The notes below the pieces were generated by a model, which was not told where the DNA came from, ran no database searches, and saw only the letters and a list, made by a program, of their open reading frames with translations. 64,000 nt of DNA from Kordia sp. (GTDB taxonomy: Bacteria > Bacteroidota > Bacteroidia > Flavobacteriales > Flavobacteriaceae). This document shows, piece after piece, positions 29,207 through 38,408 of this stretch. Numbering within the stretch: the stretch's first letter is position 1; each line of letters begins with the position of its first letter. Location of the stretch: NCBI RefSeq assembly GCF_050633145.1, contig NZ_JBOEFY010000037.1, positions 7,648-71,647 of the forward strand, written 5' to 3'. The translations under genes and the position numbers were made by a program.

Positions 29207-29350
29207 TTAGAACGGAGAGCATGAAACAGCTCTGCTACAACTAGGTCTAAAAGTTCCTCTACCACCTTTTACTTGCTCTAATTCATTAATTTTAAAAACA
29301 GAGATTGCTTTTTTATTAAGGCTCAACGATTTAAGATTCTTTTTCTTCAT
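29207..29350 (-). CDS. Double-glycine-leader peptide P2 (47 aa), not in ORF track
   Basis: Manual translation MKKKNLKSLSLNKKAISVFKINELEQVKGG|RGTFRPSCSRAVSCSPF*. Confidence 0.8.
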   Translation of the reverse strand: MKKKNLKSLSLNKKAISVFKINELEQVKGGRGTFRPSCSRAVSCSPF

Positions 29351-29372
29351 TGTATTGATTGTTTAAATATAA

Positions 29373-29402
29373 CCTACTCTATTAAAGGTTTTCGGTTTTC
29401 CC
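29373..29402 (-). promoter_or_regulatory. Conserved 30-nt element upstream of P2 (shared with P4)
   Basis: 27/30 identical to 31874..31903; 22 nt from the start codon. Confidence 0.65.
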
Positions 29403-29476
29403 TTTTAAAATAAACATGCTAGCAATGCTTAAATTCTGACACTAATATCTATGATTTAGAAATTATAGAAAACAAT

Positions 29477-29503
29477 CATATCGCGAGATTAAATAAAATA
29501 GGG
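29477..29503 (-). promoter_or_regulatory. Conserved 27-nt distal element upstream of P2 (shared with P4)
   Basis: catatcgcgagattaaataaaataggg, 23/27 identical to 31979..32005 at nearly the same spacing. Confidence 0.6.
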
Positions 29504-29511
29504 TATAAAAA

Positions 29512-29535
29512 AAGTCTTGTGTAAAAACAAGACTT
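29512..29535 (-). terminator. Terminator of peptide P3
   Basis: aagtcttgt-gtaaaa-acaagactt with T-run on the minus strand. Confidence 0.7.
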
Positions 29536-29561
29536 AAAAAATGGATTTTTATACGTAATTA

Positions 29562-29714
29562 TTACTTAGAATGAGAAGGACAGCCATCTCGAAATGTGAT
29601 GTTATCAAAATCTGTTGGAAGACTCGATCCTCCTTTTATTTCGTTCGTTTTACTTAGGCTCACCTTAGCTATAGTAGTTTTTTTTAGACTAAATTTTAGT
29701 AATTGGTTTTTCAT
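29562..29714 (-). CDS. Double-glycine-leader peptide P3 (50 aa), not in ORF track
   Basis: Manual translation MKNQLLKFSLKKTTIAKVSLSKTNEIKGG|SSLPTDFDNITFRDGCPSHSK*. Confidence 0.72.
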   Translation of the reverse strand: MKNQLLKFSLKKTTIAKVSLSKTNEIKGGSSLPTDFDNITFRDGCPSHSK

Positions 29715-29817
29715 ATTTAAAAGAGTTTTTGTTTTCACTTACTAAATATAGATGCTCACCGAAAAATAGCGAAATCATTATACCCTATTTTCTTTAAAAT
29801 AGGGTCATTTTTAGCTT

Positions 29818-31434
29818 TTAGAAAATTTCTATTTTATTCAGTTCTTTTATGTAGTAAGATGGATTCAATCCTGTTTTGTTTTTAAAATGTTTTACGAAAG
29901 AATCGTCGGTTTTATATCCTATTTCAGTTGCAATACCTTTTATAGAAAATGATCTGAATTTCTTATCGTTTTTTAATCTTTTTAAAACATATTCAATTCG
30001 TAGCTCATTGATATAATCACTAAAAGTTTTTCCTTTTTCATTATTGATTATCTGTGACAAATAAGTAACATTCGTTTTTGTTTTTTTAGCGACAGAAGTC
30101 AAGTTACAATTCGATTTCAAAAAGTATTCCTGCACTTCCAGTTTGTGTAATCGCCCAATAATTGCTTTGAGAGTAGCATCATCAATTGGAATATTTTTGA
30201 TTTGTTTTTTTGATTTTTTTTGAAATGTTACTTTTTCGTCTTCTTCTAGTGTTGAAATTTTTTCTAGAAGTGTTTTAAATGTTGCTTGATTCGTTTGCTG
30301 CTTTTTAACGTATAAGATGAGCGTTAACAAAAATGCAGAAGTAGCTATTATAATTCCCCATAACATATAATTTATGGTTTGTTTATCTTCTTTTTCTTGA
30401 TTTTGCAATGCAACGATTTGGACTAAAAATTTTTCACTGTCTTTATCATGAAATTTATTCGTTGCGATATCTTTTTTGCGACTTGCCGTATTTTTAATTT
30501 CTATAACTTTATTCAACAAAATAGTAGCTTCCTTATAGTTTCCTTTTTTCGAATAACATTGTGCCAATAGATTGTGCGTGTTTATTACATTATCTTTTTC
30601 TAAATCTTCATCTTTTATATAAGCCATTGAATTCAATAAATACTGAATTGCTTCATCATATTTTTGAAGATCATAAAAGCAAAGCGCTATTGCATAATTT
30701 GTATTTACTGTTGGGAAGAAAGGACTTGCTATGTTGTTTTTTTTTATGATTGTTTCTGCTTTAAATAGACATTCAAATGCTAGTTCCCATTTTTTTTGAT
30801 GTCTATAAAATTTTCCTTTTTTTATGTATAAGTCAACAAGTCCCTCTTGAAAGTGTAGTTTTTTAGCTAGTGCAATTCCTTTTTTTATATGTGGAAACAT
30901 TGCTTCGTAATTCCCTTGCGCCATATAAGCATCACATATAGTTGTCAATACGCGCACATGGTTTTTTTTACCTTTAAAAGTAGCTTTGTCGATTAAGGTT
31001 AATGCATACACGGAAAAATCTACAGCCTTATCTTCTTTATTGATAGAAGGTAAAAAAGCTATTAGACCAGAATATGCAATTAATTCTTGATCTATGTTTT
31101 TATTCTTTTTTGCAATAGTCAAAGCATTGTAGTAAGCTTCTATAGCTTTTTCGTTTTTCCAACTGAAGTAATATGAATTCCCAAGTTTCATGTGGGCTTT
31201 AAACAGTAAGTCTTCATCTTTTATTTCTTCTGCTATCTCGATAGCTTTTACGAAATAGGATATACTGTTTACATAGTTTTCTTTTTTTTGCAATGCATTG
31301 CCTACATCTAGATATTGTTGTACCGTTTGCCCTTTAGTTTCTTTAATAGTATGCGCCTGCTGTGGGAATGAATAATGTCCTACTAAAAAGAAAATAATTC
31401 CTATGAGAATAACTGGTGCTTTTTGTGTATTCAT
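29818..31434 (-). CDS. Membrane-spanning one-component sensor: signal peptide-TPR-TM-AraC HTH
   Basis: Hydrophobic N-terminus, TPR helices, TM YMLWGIIIATSAFLLTLILYV, AraC LTSVAKKTKTNVTYLSQIIN..FSDYINELRI..IATEIGYK. Confidence 0.88.
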   Translation of the reverse strand: MNTQKAPVILIGIIFFLVGHYSFPQQAHTIKETKGQTVQQYLDVGNALQKKENYVNSISYFVKAIEIAEEIKDEDLLFKAHMKLGNSYYFSWKNEKAIEAYYNALTIAKKNKNIDQELIAYSGLIAFLPSINKEDKAVDFSVYALTLIDKATFKGKKNHVRVLTTICDAYMAQGNYEAMFPHIKKGIALAKKLHFQEGLVDLYIKKGKFYRHQKKWELAFECLFKAETIIKKNNIASPFFPTVNTNYAIALCFYDLQKYDEAIQYLLNSMAYIKDEDLEKDNVINTHNLLAQCYSKKGNYKEATILLNKVIEIKNTASRKKDIATNKFHDKDSEKFLVQIVALQNQEKEDKQTINYMLWGIIIATSAFLLTLILYVKKQQTNQATFKTLLEKISTLEEDEKVTFQKKSKKQIKNIPIDDATLKAIIGRLHKLEVQEYFLKSNCNLTSVAKKTKTNVTYLSQIINNEKGKTFSDYINELRIEYVLKRLKNDKKFRSFSIKGIATEIGYKTDDSFVKHFKNKTGLNPSYYIKELNKIEIF

Positions 31435-31610
31435 ATATTAAATGGAAAAAGAAAACTTCATATTTAGTACAAAGTAACTATATTAATTTTAGAACCATTA
31501 ATCGTATAGAATTTCGATTTGATTTTAGCAGCTCCTTGTTTCCTAAAAAATATACTTCAACAAAGCAAAAAATTTCTGGTATACACCATTCCATTCATTA
31601 TTTTTCACAT

Positions 31611-31646
31611 AAAAAAAGAGTTGAAGCAAACACTCCAACTCTTTTT
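31611..31646 (-). terminator. Terminator of peptide P4
   Basis: aaaagagttg...caactctttt with T-run on the minus strand. Confidence 0.7.
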
Positions 31647-31685
31647 CAACAGATAAAAGTCGTAACTCAATATCTGTTTATTTAA

Positions 31686-31850
31686 TTACCCACAAGCTAT
31701 TGCACCTGTTGCGCAAAAAATATCTGTTGGTGGCTCACCATTTCTACATTCAGTAACCGTATTAAATATACTTCCTCCTGTAATTTTATTAGCATGAAAA
31801 TTAGAGATTACTTCTTTGTTGATCTGTAACTTTTTTAATGACTTTTTCAT
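31686..31850 (-). CDS. Double-glycine-leader peptide P4 (54 aa), not in ORF track
   Basis: Manual translation MKKSLKKLQINKEVISNFHANKITGG|SIFNTVTECRNGEPPTDIFCATGAIACG*. Confidence 0.8.
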   Translation of the reverse strand: MKKSLKKLQINKEVISNFHANKITGGSIFNTVTECRNGEPPTDIFCATGAIACG

Positions 31851-31873
31851 CGTTTTATGTTTTAAGAATGTTG

Positions 31874-31903
31874 CCTACTCTAATAAAGGTTTTCGGCTTC
31901 CCC
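31874..31903 (-). promoter_or_regulatory. Conserved 30-nt element upstream of P4
   Basis: cctactctaataaaggttttcggcttcccc, 23 nt from the start codon; second copy of 29373..29402. Confidence 0.65.
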
Positions 31904-31978
31904 GTATTTGAAATTGAAAACAATTGTCCTTTGATTTCGAATACGAATGTCAGTTATTAAAGCATCAAAAAAAAGGAA

Positions 31979-32005
31979 CATATCACGACTTTAAACAAAA
32001 TAGGG
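31979..32005 (-). promoter_or_regulatory. Conserved 27-nt distal element upstream of P4
   Basis: catatcacgactttaaacaaaataggg; second copy of 29477..29503. Confidence 0.6.
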
Positions 32006-32305
32006 CAAGTCATTAATTTAGAGTTTCAAGAATGGTAAAAGCGATCATTCTTAATTAAAAATAAGGTCTTTTTAAAGAAGTTAAAAATAGATTTTTACAT
32101 ACAAAAAATACAGTTAAATGACTGAAAAACAAATATTTACACCTAACAACATAAAAACAATTGCTATTTAAATAATTGCTTTAATTTAAAAAAAATAGGG
32201 TTTATCAGCACACACAAATTTAAATGATTTAGGGTTTGCTTTTTTTACTTTATATGGTACTTTTTAGATAAGAAATGAAATAGCTTTAACGAGATTAAAA
32301 AACAT

Positions 32306-35749: not shown

Positions 35750-37450
35750 ATGAATATTTCTAAAATTTCTTTGTTACTTATTTTACTTCCTTTTTGGGTT
35801 TTGGCTAATAATCAAGATTCCCTTTCTATTTTTAAAGAGAAAAACCTTTCGCAGCAACATACATATATTAAGGAACGATTAAATTCCGTAAAAAATATAG
35901 ATACTTATATTACTGCTTTTTCAGATAAAGCAAGAGGACAAAAAGACACACTTTATATTGCCAAATCGTATTATTTTAAATATCGCACCTACAGAAAAGC
36001 AAAAGCATATTCAGAAGCACATTCGGCAATTGACAAAGCCATTTTACTTGCAAAGAGCAGCAAGAAAGATTCATTATTAGGTTCTTTTTTTCATGCCAAA
36101 GGCGCTACTTTTTATATGCAGTCTAATTTTAAGGCTGCATTGGATTACTATTTAAAAGCGTATGACATTATGCGTACTAAAAGCTCAATTAGTAAATTAT
36201 TGACACTAAAATTTAATATTGCAGTAATGAAACTAAGAGTAGGAAAAACGCAAGAAGCATCTCTTCAATTTTATAAGATTATCCACTCGTACGATTCGCT
36301 ACTCAGTACAAAACCCAATTCATATGCTTTGAAAAAAAATTTTATTATAATGCTCAATAATACAGCGAAAGCCCGTACTGACTTAGCTATGTACGAGCAC
36401 GCAATTGAGTTGTATTCAAGAAGTCTTTTATTGAACGAAACTATTAATTATCTTCCTGCGAAGTGTATTGCTATTGGCGGGAAAGGAAATGTATATACCG
36501 CAGAAAAAAAATATGAGAAAGCTATTGAAAAACTAAACGAAGCATTAGCAATTTCAACTAAAGACAAAGAATCAGACTTAGTTACTCCTTATTTATTACT
36601 CGATAAAGGAAAATGCCTATTTGGATTAAAAAAATATAAAGAAGCCTTAGAAAATTTCGTAGAAATAGATCGTATCATACAAACTAAAAAACTGAATTTC
36701 CCAAACTTAGACGAAGCATATCAATTTCTTGGAAAAACGTATGTTCAATTGGGAAATCATGAAAAAGCGACGGAGGTCTATGACCAGTATATTAAACGAA
36801 AAAAGCTAAATGATGAAAAACGCTTTGAGTTGTATCAAACTATTTTTGAAGGATATGATTTGAAGAATGTAGAATATCGTGCCGAGAAAGCTGCAAAAGA
36901 GTCCAATTTATTTAAAAGCTACTTTACACAAGCAATTCTAGCAATTATACTTTTAATTATTTCTGCAATTGCCTTCTTTATGTATTATAGAAATAAGCAA
37001 AAACAAAAGTTTACAAAGTTTCATGCACTTATTAAAGAGTTAAAAACGACAGAGGTCAAGGATGTAGAAACCGTTCCTACTGGTTATGTATTATCGGACG
37101 AAAAAGCTTCTAAAATATTGAACAACTTGGAAGTTTTGGAAACGAAGTTATTTTTTCTTGATAAGAAATACAACCTTTCCACCTTGGCAAAAAAGTGTAA
37201 TACTAATTCGAGTTATTTATCTCAAGTGATTAATAAATATAAAGAGAAGACTTTTTCAGAATATATGACTGATATGCGTATTACTTATGTTTTAAATGCG
37301 TTAAAAAATGATAAAAAATTACGCTCGTACACCATTCAATCTATTGCAGAAGAAATTGGTTTTAAGAAATCAGAATCGTTTGCAAAGGCTTTTAAAAAAC
37401 GAACAGGATTTAATCCTTCTTATTATATTAAAAATCTTGACAAGCTTTAG
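35750..37450 (+). CDS. Membrane-spanning one-component sensor: signal peptide-TPR-TM-AraC HTH
   Basis: MNISKISLLLILLPFWVLA signal, TPR repeats, TM AILAIILLIISAIAFFMYY, AraC LSTLAKKCNTNSSYLSQVIN..IAEEIGFK. Confidence 0.88.
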   Translation: MNISKISLLLILLPFWVLANNQDSLSIFKEKNLSQQHTYIKERLNSVKNIDTYITAFSDKARGQKDTLYIAKSYYFKYRTYRKAKAYSEAHSAIDKAILLAKSSKKDSLLGSFFHAKGATFYMQSNFKAALDYYLKAYDIMRTKSSISKLLTLKFNIAVMKLRVGKTQEASLQFYKIIHSYDSLLSTKPNSYALKKNFIIMLNNTAKARTDLAMYEHAIELYSRSLLLNETINYLPAKCIAIGGKGNVYTAEKKYEKAIEKLNEALAISTKDKESDLVTPYLLLDKGKCLFGLKKYKEALENFVEIDRIIQTKKLNFPNLDEAYQFLGKTYVQLGNHEKATEVYDQYIKRKKLNDEKRFELYQTIFEGYDLKNVEYRAEKAAKESNLFKSYFTQAILAIILLIISAIAFFMYYRNKQKQKFTKFHALIKELKTTEVKDVETVPTGYVLSDEKASKILNNLEVLETKLFFLDKKYNLSTLAKKCNTNSSYLSQVINKYKEKTFSEYMTDMRITYVLNALKNDKKLRSYTIQSIAEEIGFKKSESFAKAFKKRTGFNPSYYIKNLDKL

Positions 37451-37459
37451 TTTATTAAT

Positions 37460-37477
37460 CTATTTTCATAAAAATCG
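37460..37477. promoter_or_regulatory. 18-bp palindromic box copy 1 (CGATTTTYATRAAAATCG)
   Basis: ctattttcataaaaatcg, 17/18 match, 70 nt before P5 start. Confidence 0.65.
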
Positions 37478-37547
37478 ATTATAAACACTGGGATTCGGTT
37501 TTAGAATTAACGTACTTTCTACTATCATTAATCTTAAAACTAATAGT

Positions 37548-37739
37548 ATGAAAAGTAGATTTCACAAAAAATTAAACCTTAAAAAAGTTACCATTTCTAA
37601 ATACATTATTCTTGGCGGTTCAGCAACTCCTGATAGTGAATCGGTTCCTACACAATCTAGCGCATATCTTGAACCAACAGAATTACCTGTACTGGATGAG
37701 AATTTGACAATTAGTGGCCATCAACAAACGTGCATGTAA
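37548..37739 (+). CDS. Double-glycine-leader peptide P5 (63 aa, acidic core)
   Basis: MKSRFHKKLNLKKVTISKYIILGG|...SSAYLEPTE...TCM. Confidence 0.8.
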   Translation: MKSRFHKKLNLKKVTISKYIILGGSATPDSESVPTQSSAYLEPTELPVLDENLTISGHQQTCM

Positions 37740-37767
37740 ACACATATATCTTGGTTAAAATCTAGTA

Positions 37768-37785
37768 CGATTTTTATAAAAATCG
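37768..37785. promoter_or_regulatory. 18-bp palindromic box copy 2
   Basis: cgatttttataaaaatcg, 18/18 match, 73 nt before P6 start. Confidence 0.7.
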
Positions 37786-37858
37786 ATTATAAGTATTGGG
37801 AATGTTTAGAGAAATTGAGTTTCTTCACATTATAATAATTAACTCTAAAACTTGTATT

Positions 37859-38041
37859 ATGAAAACTAAGTTTCACAAAAAATTATCCCTCAAAAAAATT
37901 ACAATCTCAACATATAAAATCTATGGAGGTAATGAAGAAGATACCATTAAATCTAGCGCATATCTAGAGCCAACAGAAACTCCAACTCCAATAGATGAAA
38001 GTCCTAGATTGATTAGTGCTAATAATGAAACCTGTGTTTAA
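37859..38041 (+). CDS. Double-glycine-leader peptide P6 (60 aa, paralogue of P5)
   Basis: MKTKFHKKLSLKKITISTYKIYGG|...SSAYLEPTE...TCV; start moved from 37796. Confidence 0.8.
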   Translation: MKTKFHKKLSLKKITISTYKIYGGNEEDTIKSSAYLEPTETPTPIDESPRLISANNETCV

Positions 38042-38060
38042 TACGCTTCGTTAAAAAAAT

Positions 38061-38094
38061 AAAAGCTCTTGAGTTATTCTCAAGAGCTTTTTTT
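38061..38094. terminator. Bidirectional terminator between convergent peptides
   Basis: aaaagctcttgag-ttatt-ctcaagagctttt. Confidence 0.85.
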
Positions 38095-38098
38095 GTTG

Positions 38099-38293
38099 TT
38101 ATACACACGGATGTACTGACAAGCAAGGGTTTGGAATATCTGTATTTCCAGTAAAAGAATTTTCACAAAGTCTGTGTTCTTTAGTTGGCTCAACTGGACA
38201 TAAAATCACTGAGATAATTCCTCCTTTTGCACTTTCTAAATTAGAGATCAATTTCTTGTTTAATTTTAAACTTTTTAAACTTCTTTTCTTCAT
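38099..38293 (-). CDS. Double-glycine-leader peptide P7 (64 aa, 4-Cys core)
   Basis: MKKRSLKSLKLNKKLISNLESAKGG|IISVILCPVEPTKEHRLCENSFTGNTDIPNPCLSVHPCV; start moved from 38365. Confidence 0.8.
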   Translation of the reverse strand: MKKRSLKSLKLNKKLISNLESAKGGIISVILCPVEPTKEHRLCENSFTGNTDIPNPCLSVHPCV

Positions 38294-38368
38294 AATGAAT
38301 ATAATTTTAAGGTTTATGATTTGACTCAAAACTAGATCACATTTTGTGCTAAAACAAAGCAACATTTA

Positions 38369-38408
38369 CGATTTTCATGAAAATCTAATACGTTTTTCAT
38401 AAAAATAG
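38369..38408. promoter_or_regulatory. 18-bp palindromic box copies 3 and 4
   Basis: cgattttcatgaaaatct (38369..38386, 17/18) and cgtttttcataaaaatag (38391..38408, 16/18); first copy 75 nt before P7 start. Confidence 0.65.

Follow-up and report, generated by a model that had tools for sequence, protein, structure and literature searches.

A Predicted Membrane-Spanning TPR-AraC Sensor Forms a Recurrent Module with Lanthipeptide-Type Peptide Genes in Kordia

A Sensor Gene Lies among Three Double-Glycine Peptide Genes

We analyzed a 64-kb stretch of DNA (the window; ~33% G+C and thus AT-rich) from the genome of a marine flavobacterium of the genus Kordia (Flavobacteriaceae; 6.26 Mb in 122 contigs). 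Between positions 29207 and 31850, the minus strand carries a gene for a 538-amino acid (aa) sensor-regulator and three genes, P4, P3, and P2, for small peptides whose leaders end in a double glycine (GG). The view that sensor and peptide genes form one functional module, which we call Module 1, is strongly supported, since the arrangement recurs elsewhere in this genome, in other species, and in other genera.

The genes follow one another in the order P4, sensor, P3, P2, as had been read from the sequence alone (the sequence-only reading) and as the coordinates of the open reading frames (ORFs) bear out. P4 (31686-31850, minus strand) encodes a 54-aa peptide with the core SIFNTVTECRNGEPPTDIFCATGAIACG and has orthologues in five Kordia loci. 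The sensor gene (29818-31434, minus strand) is followed by P3 (29562-29714, minus strand), which encodes a 50-aa peptide with the core SSLPTDFDNITFRDGCPSHSK and was assigned from its ORF, its leader subtype, and its orthologues. The length of P3 is counted from an ATG; an alternative GTG at 29738 is also open. P2 (29207-29350, minus strand) encodes a 47-aa peptide with the core RGTFRPSCSRAVSCSPF, which is identical in two other Kordia genomes.

To describe the sensor, we combined domain searches, hydropathy, and structure prediction. Pfam searches matched tetratricopeptide repeat (TPR) families (TPR_12, 2.1e-24; TPR_1, 5.4e-18; also TPR_2) and, at residues 449-530, the AraC/XylS-family helix-turn-helix (HTH) domain HTH_18 (8.9e-13; 48.8 bits against a cut-off of 33.6). 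No match to HisKA, HATPase, or Response_reg was found in the sensor. The N terminus is a hydrophobic, signal-like segment (mean Kyte-Doolittle hydropathy 3.23), and a central transmembrane (TM) segment at residues 358-376 is followed by KKQQ. Both features recur in the 45 full-length copies of the sensor in this genome: 42 have the N-terminal segment and all 45 have the central TM segment with K/R after it. As the HTH domain must be cytoplasmic and a single TM segment separates the two domains, the TPR domain is predicted to be periplasmic.

With 48 homologues as input, AlphaFold2 gave a model (mean predicted local distance difference test score [pLDDT] 85.7) that is consistent with this topology. 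It consists of a TPR superhelix at residues ~30-296 (pLDDT above 90), a single long helix at residues 300-403 that holds a stalk and the TM segment, and, after a linker, a helical bundle at residues 419-537 (pLDDT ~88) that contains the AraC-type HTH. Thus, the architecture given in the sequence-only reading, a periplasmic TPR domain, one TM segment, and a cytoplasmic AraC-type HTH, agrees with the Pfam matches, the hydropathy profile, and the model, and stands as a prediction. The TPR model is a superhelix of the peptide-groove type, and its matches in the PDB include LGN-peptide complexes, NprR-NprX (TM-scores of 0.60-0.62 for NprR), and Rap-Phr (0.57 for Rap). In databases, members of the sensor family are named only "tetratricopeptide repeat protein," "AraC family transcriptional regulator," or "helix-turn-helix domain-containing protein."

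Sensor and Peptide Genes Are Coupled across the Genome

Module 1 is one of ~45 paralogous units in this Kordia genome that consist of a sensor, a box (described below), and a peptide. To find GG-leader peptides, we used NF038153, the NCBIfam model of class I lanthipeptide leaders (cut-off 22 bits), which detected more than 150, and an iterated leader hidden Markov model (HMM), which detected 278. As controls for the sensors we took 614 ORFs of 450-650 aa and assessed significance with Fisher's test. An HMM-detected peptide lay within 1 kb of 30 of the 45 sensors, compared to 41 of the 614 controls (p = 1.7e-21). When we instead counted small ORFs on the same strand that start with K/R, contain GG and Cys, and begin 60-150 nt past the stop codon, the fractions were 34/45 for sensors and 9/614 for controls (p = 5e-39). 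These comparisons rule out a chance association of sensor and peptide.

The peptides next to sensors are also of a special kind. A leader subtype with the pattern ...K(I/V)(A/V)xx(I/L/M/V/F)... occurs in 24 of 35 sensor-adjacent peptides compared to 26 of 270 others (p = 7e-14). The sensor-adjacent cores contain more Thr, Asn, and Asp and fewer Cys, and their net charge is -3.7 versus -1.6. In Module 1, P3 belongs to this subclass and P2 and P4 lie outside it.

Within the sensors, conservation is highest in the DNA-binding output domain, which each of the 45 paralogues retains. This bears on the idea that the TPR domain binds peptide mainly to protect the producer, by sequestration or immunity, or as a chaperone, with transcription control secondary. 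Extended peptides do bind in TPR grooves, and we found no obvious immunity genes in Module 1. The universal retention of the DNA-binding domain is hard to reconcile with such a role, and a single-copy membrane protein would be a poor sink for a secreted peptide. We regard this explanation as very improbable.

The window contains a second unit, Module 2 (35750-38408), identified by domain search and box scan, with a sensor at 35750-37450 (plus strand), peptides at 37548-37739 (plus strand) and 38099-38293 (minus strand), and a palindrome type of its own, CGATTTTYATRAAAATCG.

The Sensor-P3 Pair Is Conserved in Other Genomes

All 18 other Kordia genomes that we searched contain matches to the sensor, with 6-30 in each. 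At ten orthologous loci in these genomes, the sensor is 60-83% identical to that of the window, and a P3-type peptide with the core SS[LIV]PTD...C follows it directly in 10/10. Around this pair, P2, P4, and a fourth peptide type that we call PX (core ...MCNSVPRHLGGIGCH..) are variable. P2, P3, and P4 are therefore not equivalent: P3, which is always directly downstream, has the special leader subtype, and is preceded by a full palindrome, is the conserved cognate partner of the sensor, and P2 and P4, each with a half-site and a DUF805b 5' element, are variable "cargo" peptides.

In two genomes, the sensor-P3 pair is duplicated in tandem, and in the duplicate both the sensor and the P3 core belong to a long, diverged subtype. 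Of the two sensor domains, the TPR domain changes more quickly: in this subtype it is 59-66% identical to that of the window sensor, versus 76-80% for the HTH domain. In one Kordia genome, the orthologous sensor (L034; G001:C8:89107-90693) has an in-frame TAA and may be a pseudogene, unless the codon stems from an error in sequencing; that genome also carries an intact sensor in tandem, whose P3 is diverged.

The pairing extends to other sensors and other genera. At loci of paralogous sensors in other Kordia species, a GG peptide lies downstream at 14 of 18, and each orthologous group keeps its own triad of sensor, palindrome, and peptide. In Aquimarina, the sensor is followed by peptides with cores SSYPP... 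and SSVPP...; in Dokdonia, it is followed by an SSDPTD...C peptide and then by LanB-N and LanB-C; and in Chryseobacterium, it lies between a LanB/S9-peptidase block and a small peptide with a SPASM radical-SAM gene. Across genera, the sensor-peptide pair is kept at 38-46% protein identity.

Module-Specific Boxes Lie before the Peptide Genes

Between the sensor and P3 lies a perfect 24-bp palindrome, ACCCTATTTTAAAGAAAATAGGGT (29782-29805), 12 nt past the sensor stop codon and ~85 nt before the P3 ATG. This full form, ACCCTATTTT-N4-AAAATAGGGT, is conserved in all 11 Kordia loci examined, this one and the ten orthologous ones, and the palindrome sequence is kept while the surrounding intergenic DNA diverges. 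In place of the full form, P4 and P2 are preceded by distal boxes that contain the half-site CCCTATTTT and extend it to CCCTATTTTnTTTAAnnTCGYGATA. The P4 box, CCCTATTTTGTTTAAAGTCGTGATA (31981-32005, minus strand), lies ~155 nt before the ATG and is conserved in all five P4 orthologues; the P2 box, CCCTATTTTATTTAATCTCGCGATA (29479-29503, minus strand), was found by half-site search ~153 nt before the ATG.

The 9-mer CCCTATTTT occurs five times inside the 2.7-kb module. We considered whether it is a genome-wide repeat and rejected this, as 69 copies were observed in the genome versus ~80 expected; since the 9-mer is not enriched genome-wide, its clustering in the module is local. One of the five copies (32192-32200, minus strand; half-site search) lies ~195 nt upstream of the P4 distal box, and in this genome no peptide gene follows it. 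As relatives carry an additional PX gene near P4, this copy may be left over from the promoter of a cargo peptide that was lost.

The sequence-only reading had described the genes as separated by terminators, and this held in part. The P3 gene is followed by an intrinsic terminator (29512-29535, minus strand; -9.6 kcal/mol, z = -4.8, then a T-run), and our scan placed two terminator-like hairpins 3' of P2 (29110-29181, minus strand). A terminator-like hairpin and T-run read from the sequence 3' of P4 (AAAAAGAGTTG...CAACTCTTTTTTT; 31611-31647, minus strand) went unflagged by the scan because its stem has few G-C pairs. The element between the sensor and P3 does not fit: it is the 24-bp palindrome, whose AT-rich stem and lack of a T-tract on the sensor strand make it a poor terminator.

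These features bear on the possibility that the adjacency of sensor and peptide is a relic of a duplicated fragment of a lanthipeptide cluster (sensor plus LanA), that the palindromes are mere hairpins or terminators, and that the sensor acts on other genes or on none in its vicinity. In a cluster on contig C58 of this genome (see below), LanC, LanB, sensor, and peptide occur in that order, which would suit such an origin; the palindrome can fold as a hairpin, and on the plus strand it was marked as terminator-like by the terminator scan. Against this, the T-tract is missing on the sensor's own strand, half-sites also precede P2 and P4, at points where no gene terminates, and orthologues conserve the palindrome sequence beyond what pairing would require. 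Retention of the pair across genera, at the identities given above, also argues against a relic.

Further evidence came from the other sensors, which have their own palindromes of 18-24 bp at the same position, such as TCGTATTTATATAAATACGA, ACCTTAAATTAGATGATTTAAGGT, and AGCACATATTCATGAATATGTGCT. In Module 2, the palindrome ATCTATTTTCATAAAAATCGAT follows the sensor stop codon, and further copies lie before its other peptides. The box TCGTATTTATATAAATACGA, which adjoins sensor C12_19853, recurs with at most two mismatches upstream of four GG-peptide genes, each on a different contig, at a distance of 75-81 nt (G000:C3:64125, C4:103594, C12:19832, and C39:36723). This recurrence upstream of peptide genes rules out a mere terminator role and suggests that the C12 sensor controls a dispersed regulon. 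We consider the relic explanation very improbable. The behavior of the palindrome of Module 1 is that of a conserved operator more than that of a terminator, making it a candidate operator.

We also compared the boxes with the HTH domains. In a nearest-neighbor test, the most similar HTH pairs had more similar boxes (0.614 versus 0.496 ± 0.025), a value reached in 0 of 10,000 permutations. When all pairs were ranked, HTH identity and box similarity showed no significant correlation (rho 0.07, p 0.39). Taken with the position and conservation of the boxes, the data make it likely that the membrane-tethered regulator acts through its AraC domain on module-specific boxes and so controls the neighboring peptide genes. 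We infer that it activates rather than represses them.

A DUF805b RNA Element Precedes P2 and P4

The P2 and P4 genes have in common a second, proximal motif of 23 nt, which we had considered as a promoter or operator. We rejected this assignment because the motif is the Rfam DUF805b RNA motif (RF02914). In the P4 leader, the 35-nt DUF805b match spans 31872-31906 (minus strand; 40.0 bits against a gathering score of 35.6, E = 3.8e-9) and ends 21 nt before the ATG; in the P2 leader, it spans 29371-29405 (minus strand; 44.6 bits, E = 1e-10) and ends 20 nt before the ATG. DUF805b is a candidate cis-regulatory RNA family, which Weinberg and colleagues are said to have described in 2017.

The genome contains 49 copies, 47 of them beyond P2 and P4, and each ends at a distance of 13-30 nt (mostly 18-26) from the start codon that follows. 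The stem covaries among these copies (GGC/GCC, AGC/GCT, GGT/ACC, and AGG/CCT). The distance to the start codon is fixed, yet the distance between the hairpin and GAGTAGG varies. Although the family is named after DUF805 genes, about 14 of the 49 copies here precede GG-leader peptides, and the rest precede genes for lipoproteins, a cystatin-like protein, and proteins without a signal peptide. P3 has no DUF805b element in Kordia, and the P3-type gene of Dokdonia has one. Since DUF805b precedes many unrelated genes, it is not specific to this sensor; it is a general 5' element that lies outside sensor specificity.

The Peptides Resemble Class I Lanthipeptide Precursors

The leaders of P2, P3, and P4 are K-rich, with GG at positions 25-30 in all three, and the cores are unrelated to each other. 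Each shows the leader pattern LxLxKx5L...GG, which was described for class I precursors of Bacteroidetes and frequently accompanies a C39 protease (Walker et al. 2020, PMC7268733). With NF038153, P2 scored 29.9 bits, above the cut-off of 22, and P4 (21.0) and P3 (16.7) scored below it; Pfam searches gave no match for the peptides. The cores contain two Cys and six Ser/Thr in P2, one Cys and six Ser/Thr in P3, and three Cys and six Ser/Thr in P4, a composition that suits (methyl)lanthionine rings. By their sequence, the leaders appear to be of the Bacteroidota class I lanthipeptide type.

Within the 64-kb window we found no LanB, LanC, or C39-peptidase ABC exporter (PCAT). The whole genome encodes one split LanB, two LanC, and two full PCATs, the latter on contigs C49 and C58. 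The split LanB and one of the LanC proteins are encoded on C58 in a complete class I lanthipeptide cluster (G000:C58:3763-17840). One strand of this cluster carries genes for an AAA_21 protein, a PCAT, and an HlyD-type adaptor; the other carries LanC, LanB-N, LanB-C, a TPR-TM-AraC paralogue of the sensor, and GG peptides, of which one begins 88 nt after the sensor paralogue. At the far end of the cluster are a TPR protein gene, an extracytoplasmic function (ECF) sigma factor gene, and a DUF805b copy. The second PCAT (G000:C49:21576-30820) lies in an operon with genes for an HlyD adaptor, a TolC-like outer membrane efflux protein (OEP), a 970-aa second ABC protein, a DUF7005 protein, and a cyclic nucleotide monophosphate (cNMP)-binding protein, and forms a full tripartite exporter.

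P2, P3, and P4 probably depend on LanB, LanC, and PCAT encoded elsewhere, and we infer that modification occurs in trans. Export probably crosses both membranes. As the two PCATs both adjoin HlyD-type adaptors and one also a TolC-like OEP, export probably bypasses the periplasm.

The 278 GG-leader peptide genes are Cys-rich and many lie in tandem arrays of 6-15 (for example, C2:60273-61937, C40:147907-151224, and C47:27977-29622). The presence of ~280 precursors and only one split LanB, two LanC, and two PCATs suggests a prochlorosin-like layout, with many precursors and few enzymes, in a flavobacterium.

A Model for Peptide Sensing by the Module

From these data we propose that the sensor is a membrane-tethered one-component regulator of the neighboring peptide genes, plausibly autoinduced by a mature peptide. 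We assign this reading as a whole a probability of about 0.5. The 538-aa sensor would span the inner membrane with its TPR superhelix in the periplasm, and the single TM helix and long stalk would relay a signal to the C-terminal AraC-type HTH, which would bind DNA at the cytoplasmic face while still tethered to the membrane. Its targets would be the full palindrome before P3 and the CCCTATTTT...TCGYGATA boxes before P2 and P4. The precursors would most likely be dehydrated and cyclized in trans by the genome's single split LanB together with its LanC, and a PCAT would cut them after the GG and export them. A mature cognate peptide of the P3 type would be the most likely signal for the TPR domain, resulting in positive feedback as known for nisin/NisRK and PlcR/PapR, with P2 and P4 as co-regulated cargo.

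The step that concerns the ligand is the least firm. We favor the mature cognate peptide as the ligand of the periplasmic TPR domain and put its chances slightly below even. The main rival is that the sensor does regulate the neighboring peptide genes but that its TPR domain senses another cue (candidates are stress in the envelope, a peptide from a competitor, a signal from algae or a host, and the condition of the export machinery), and that the peptides are plain bacteriocin-like effectors. The coupling and box evidence fits this explanation equally, and tripartite export through PCAT, HlyD, and OEP would carry the peptides past the periplasm. Periplasmic TPR sensor domains also exist in Bacteroidota kinases, and residues 25-193 of the sensor have a weak match to the FimS-like model NF053520. 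However, generic cues hardly explain 45 sensors that each have a private, co-conserved peptide of a special subclass. Because the modifying and export enzymes are shared, only the TPR domain, the box, and the peptide differ among the 45 modules. The cognate gene lies directly downstream of the sensor, as in PlcR-PapR and ComR-ComS, and the full box before it is the layout of a positive feedback loop. For these reasons we consider sensing of another cue rather unlikely, and sensing of the cognate peptide the better explanation.

Several observations weigh against the proposed autoinduction circuit. If the peptides are exported past the periplasm, a peptide of 20-40 residues (2-4 kDa) would need a route back through the outer membrane to reach the TPR domain. 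The fold matches of the TPR model are generic, as consensus (designed) TPR proteins and LGN outrank the RRNPP proteins. A sensor lies within 3 kb of only 55 of the 278 peptides, and P3 and P4 fall under the NF038153 cut-off. The palindrome ACCCTATTTTAAAGAAAATAGGGT could fold as an RNA hairpin (-11.5 kcal/mol, z = -2.6), and palindromes are not what AraC-type domains usually bind. The similarity of HTH domains and boxes could stem in part from co-duplication rather than recognition.

Extending the model of cognate-peptide sensing to all paralogues gives a more tentative picture, in which Kordia and related Flavobacteriaceae might run dozens of orthogonal channels, each with a lanthipeptide-type pheromone, a private TPR-AraC receptor, and a private palindromic operator.

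To our knowledge, no peptide quorum sensing is established in Bacteroidota, where cell-cell signals are largely unknown. Our literature search found no description of a TPR-TM-AraC/peptide pairing. A survey of Bacteroidales clusters for peptides made on ribosomes and modified after translation (RiPPs) touches only briefly on TPR and HTH genes in clusters (PMC10352776). Kordia algicida releases protease in a density-dependent manner, and cell-free filtrate from which high-molecular-weight material had been removed induces this release, with no acyl-homoserine lactone (AHL) detected (PMC3117869); a later study still treats regulation of the protease as open (PMC10565126). If the tentative picture of many channels is correct, it would be the first case of quorum sensing or autoinduction by peptides described for Bacteroidota and would offer a candidate for the unidentified non-AHL density signal of K. 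algicida protease release. Class I lanthipeptide clusters of Bacteroidota would also have a likely pathway regulator in this sensor family, a help in activating silent clusters for natural-product discovery. The ~45 natural variants in a single genome offer a testable triad of receptor, ligand, and operator, and a set of specificity pairs from which to learn how a periplasmic TPR domain reads a peptide, how a tethered AraC domain reads DNA, and how channels are insulated from each other.

Comparison with Known Systems

TPR domains are the peptide-binding modules of the Gram-positive RRNPP quorum sensors, and the sequence-only reading had proposed a Gram-negative, trans-membrane counterpart of this family. 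The module and the predicted periplasmic TPR domain survive from that proposal, and the peptide promoters carry module-specific boxes; kinship with RRNPP does not survive, and nisin/NisRK is the closer analogue. As in PlcR-PapR, NprR-NprX, Rap-Phr, Rgg-SHP, and ComR-ComS, a TPR superhelix is the presumed peptide receptor and the peptide gene lies immediately 3' of the receptor gene. A palindromic box lies before the peptide gene and regulon genes, as with the PlcR box. However, RRNPP receptors are cytoplasmic, carry an N-terminal XRE-type HTH or a phosphatase domain, and respond to peptides that are exported by Sec and re-imported by Opp. Here the prediction puts the TPR domain in the periplasm, an AraC-type HTH follows at the C terminus beyond a TM segment, the peptides have GG leaders, and PF18768 (RNPP_C) was not among the Pfam matches of the sensor. 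On this predicted architecture, the sensor shares a TPR domain with the RRNPP family and has neither its cytoplasmic location nor its XRE, phosphatase, or RNPP_C domains, and is not a member.

The class I lanthipeptide leaders and the probable dependence on LanB, LanC, and PCAT bring the module closer to nisin and subtilin. In NisK-NisR and SpaK-SpaR, as in our model, a class I lanthipeptide-type precursor gene adjoins the gene for a membrane sensor that controls the precursor promoter, and the exported mature peptide is the presumed extracellular signal. The sensor gene likewise lies within a LanB/LanC cluster, here on C58 and in Dokdonia. In contrast to a kinase and a response regulator, the Kordia system is one protein with a TPR sensor, an AraC-type HTH output, and no phosphorelay. 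It is present in ~45 orthogonal copies per genome, and its host is Gram-negative, so that the sensor lies behind an outer membrane. NisK/SpaK sensing would be the closest functional precedent, with the two components compressed into one protein.

Other systems share single aspects of the arrangement. The Gram-positive three-component pheromone systems ComC/ComDE, PlnA/PlnBCD, and BlpC/BlpRH also have one GG-leader inducer beside several GG-leader bacteriocin "cargo" genes, common promoter boxes, and PCAT export, but use a histidine kinase with a LytTR response regulator and direct-repeat boxes, whereas here there is a single TPR-TM-AraC protein and palindromes. As in ToxR, TcpP, and CadC, the DNA-binding domain would work while anchored in the inner membrane and linked to a periplasmic sensor domain, although theirs is an N-terminal winged helix of the OmpR type. 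Bacteroidota already use AraC-type HTH outputs on membrane sensors in the hybrid two-component systems of Bacteroides; those proteins have kinase, receiver, and Y_Y_Y domains, none of which we found in the sensor. The many scattered precursors, with a conserved leader, hypervariable Cys-rich cores, and few modifying enzymes, recall the prochlorosins, in which one ProcM serves ~30 scattered ProcA peptides. The Kordia enzymes are of class I (a split LanB with LanC), not class II, the host belongs to the Bacteroidota rather than the cyanobacteria, and many of the precursors have a private membrane regulator. By analogy, the sensor would work like the RRNPP, NisRK, and ComCDE circuits while being a member of none of them.

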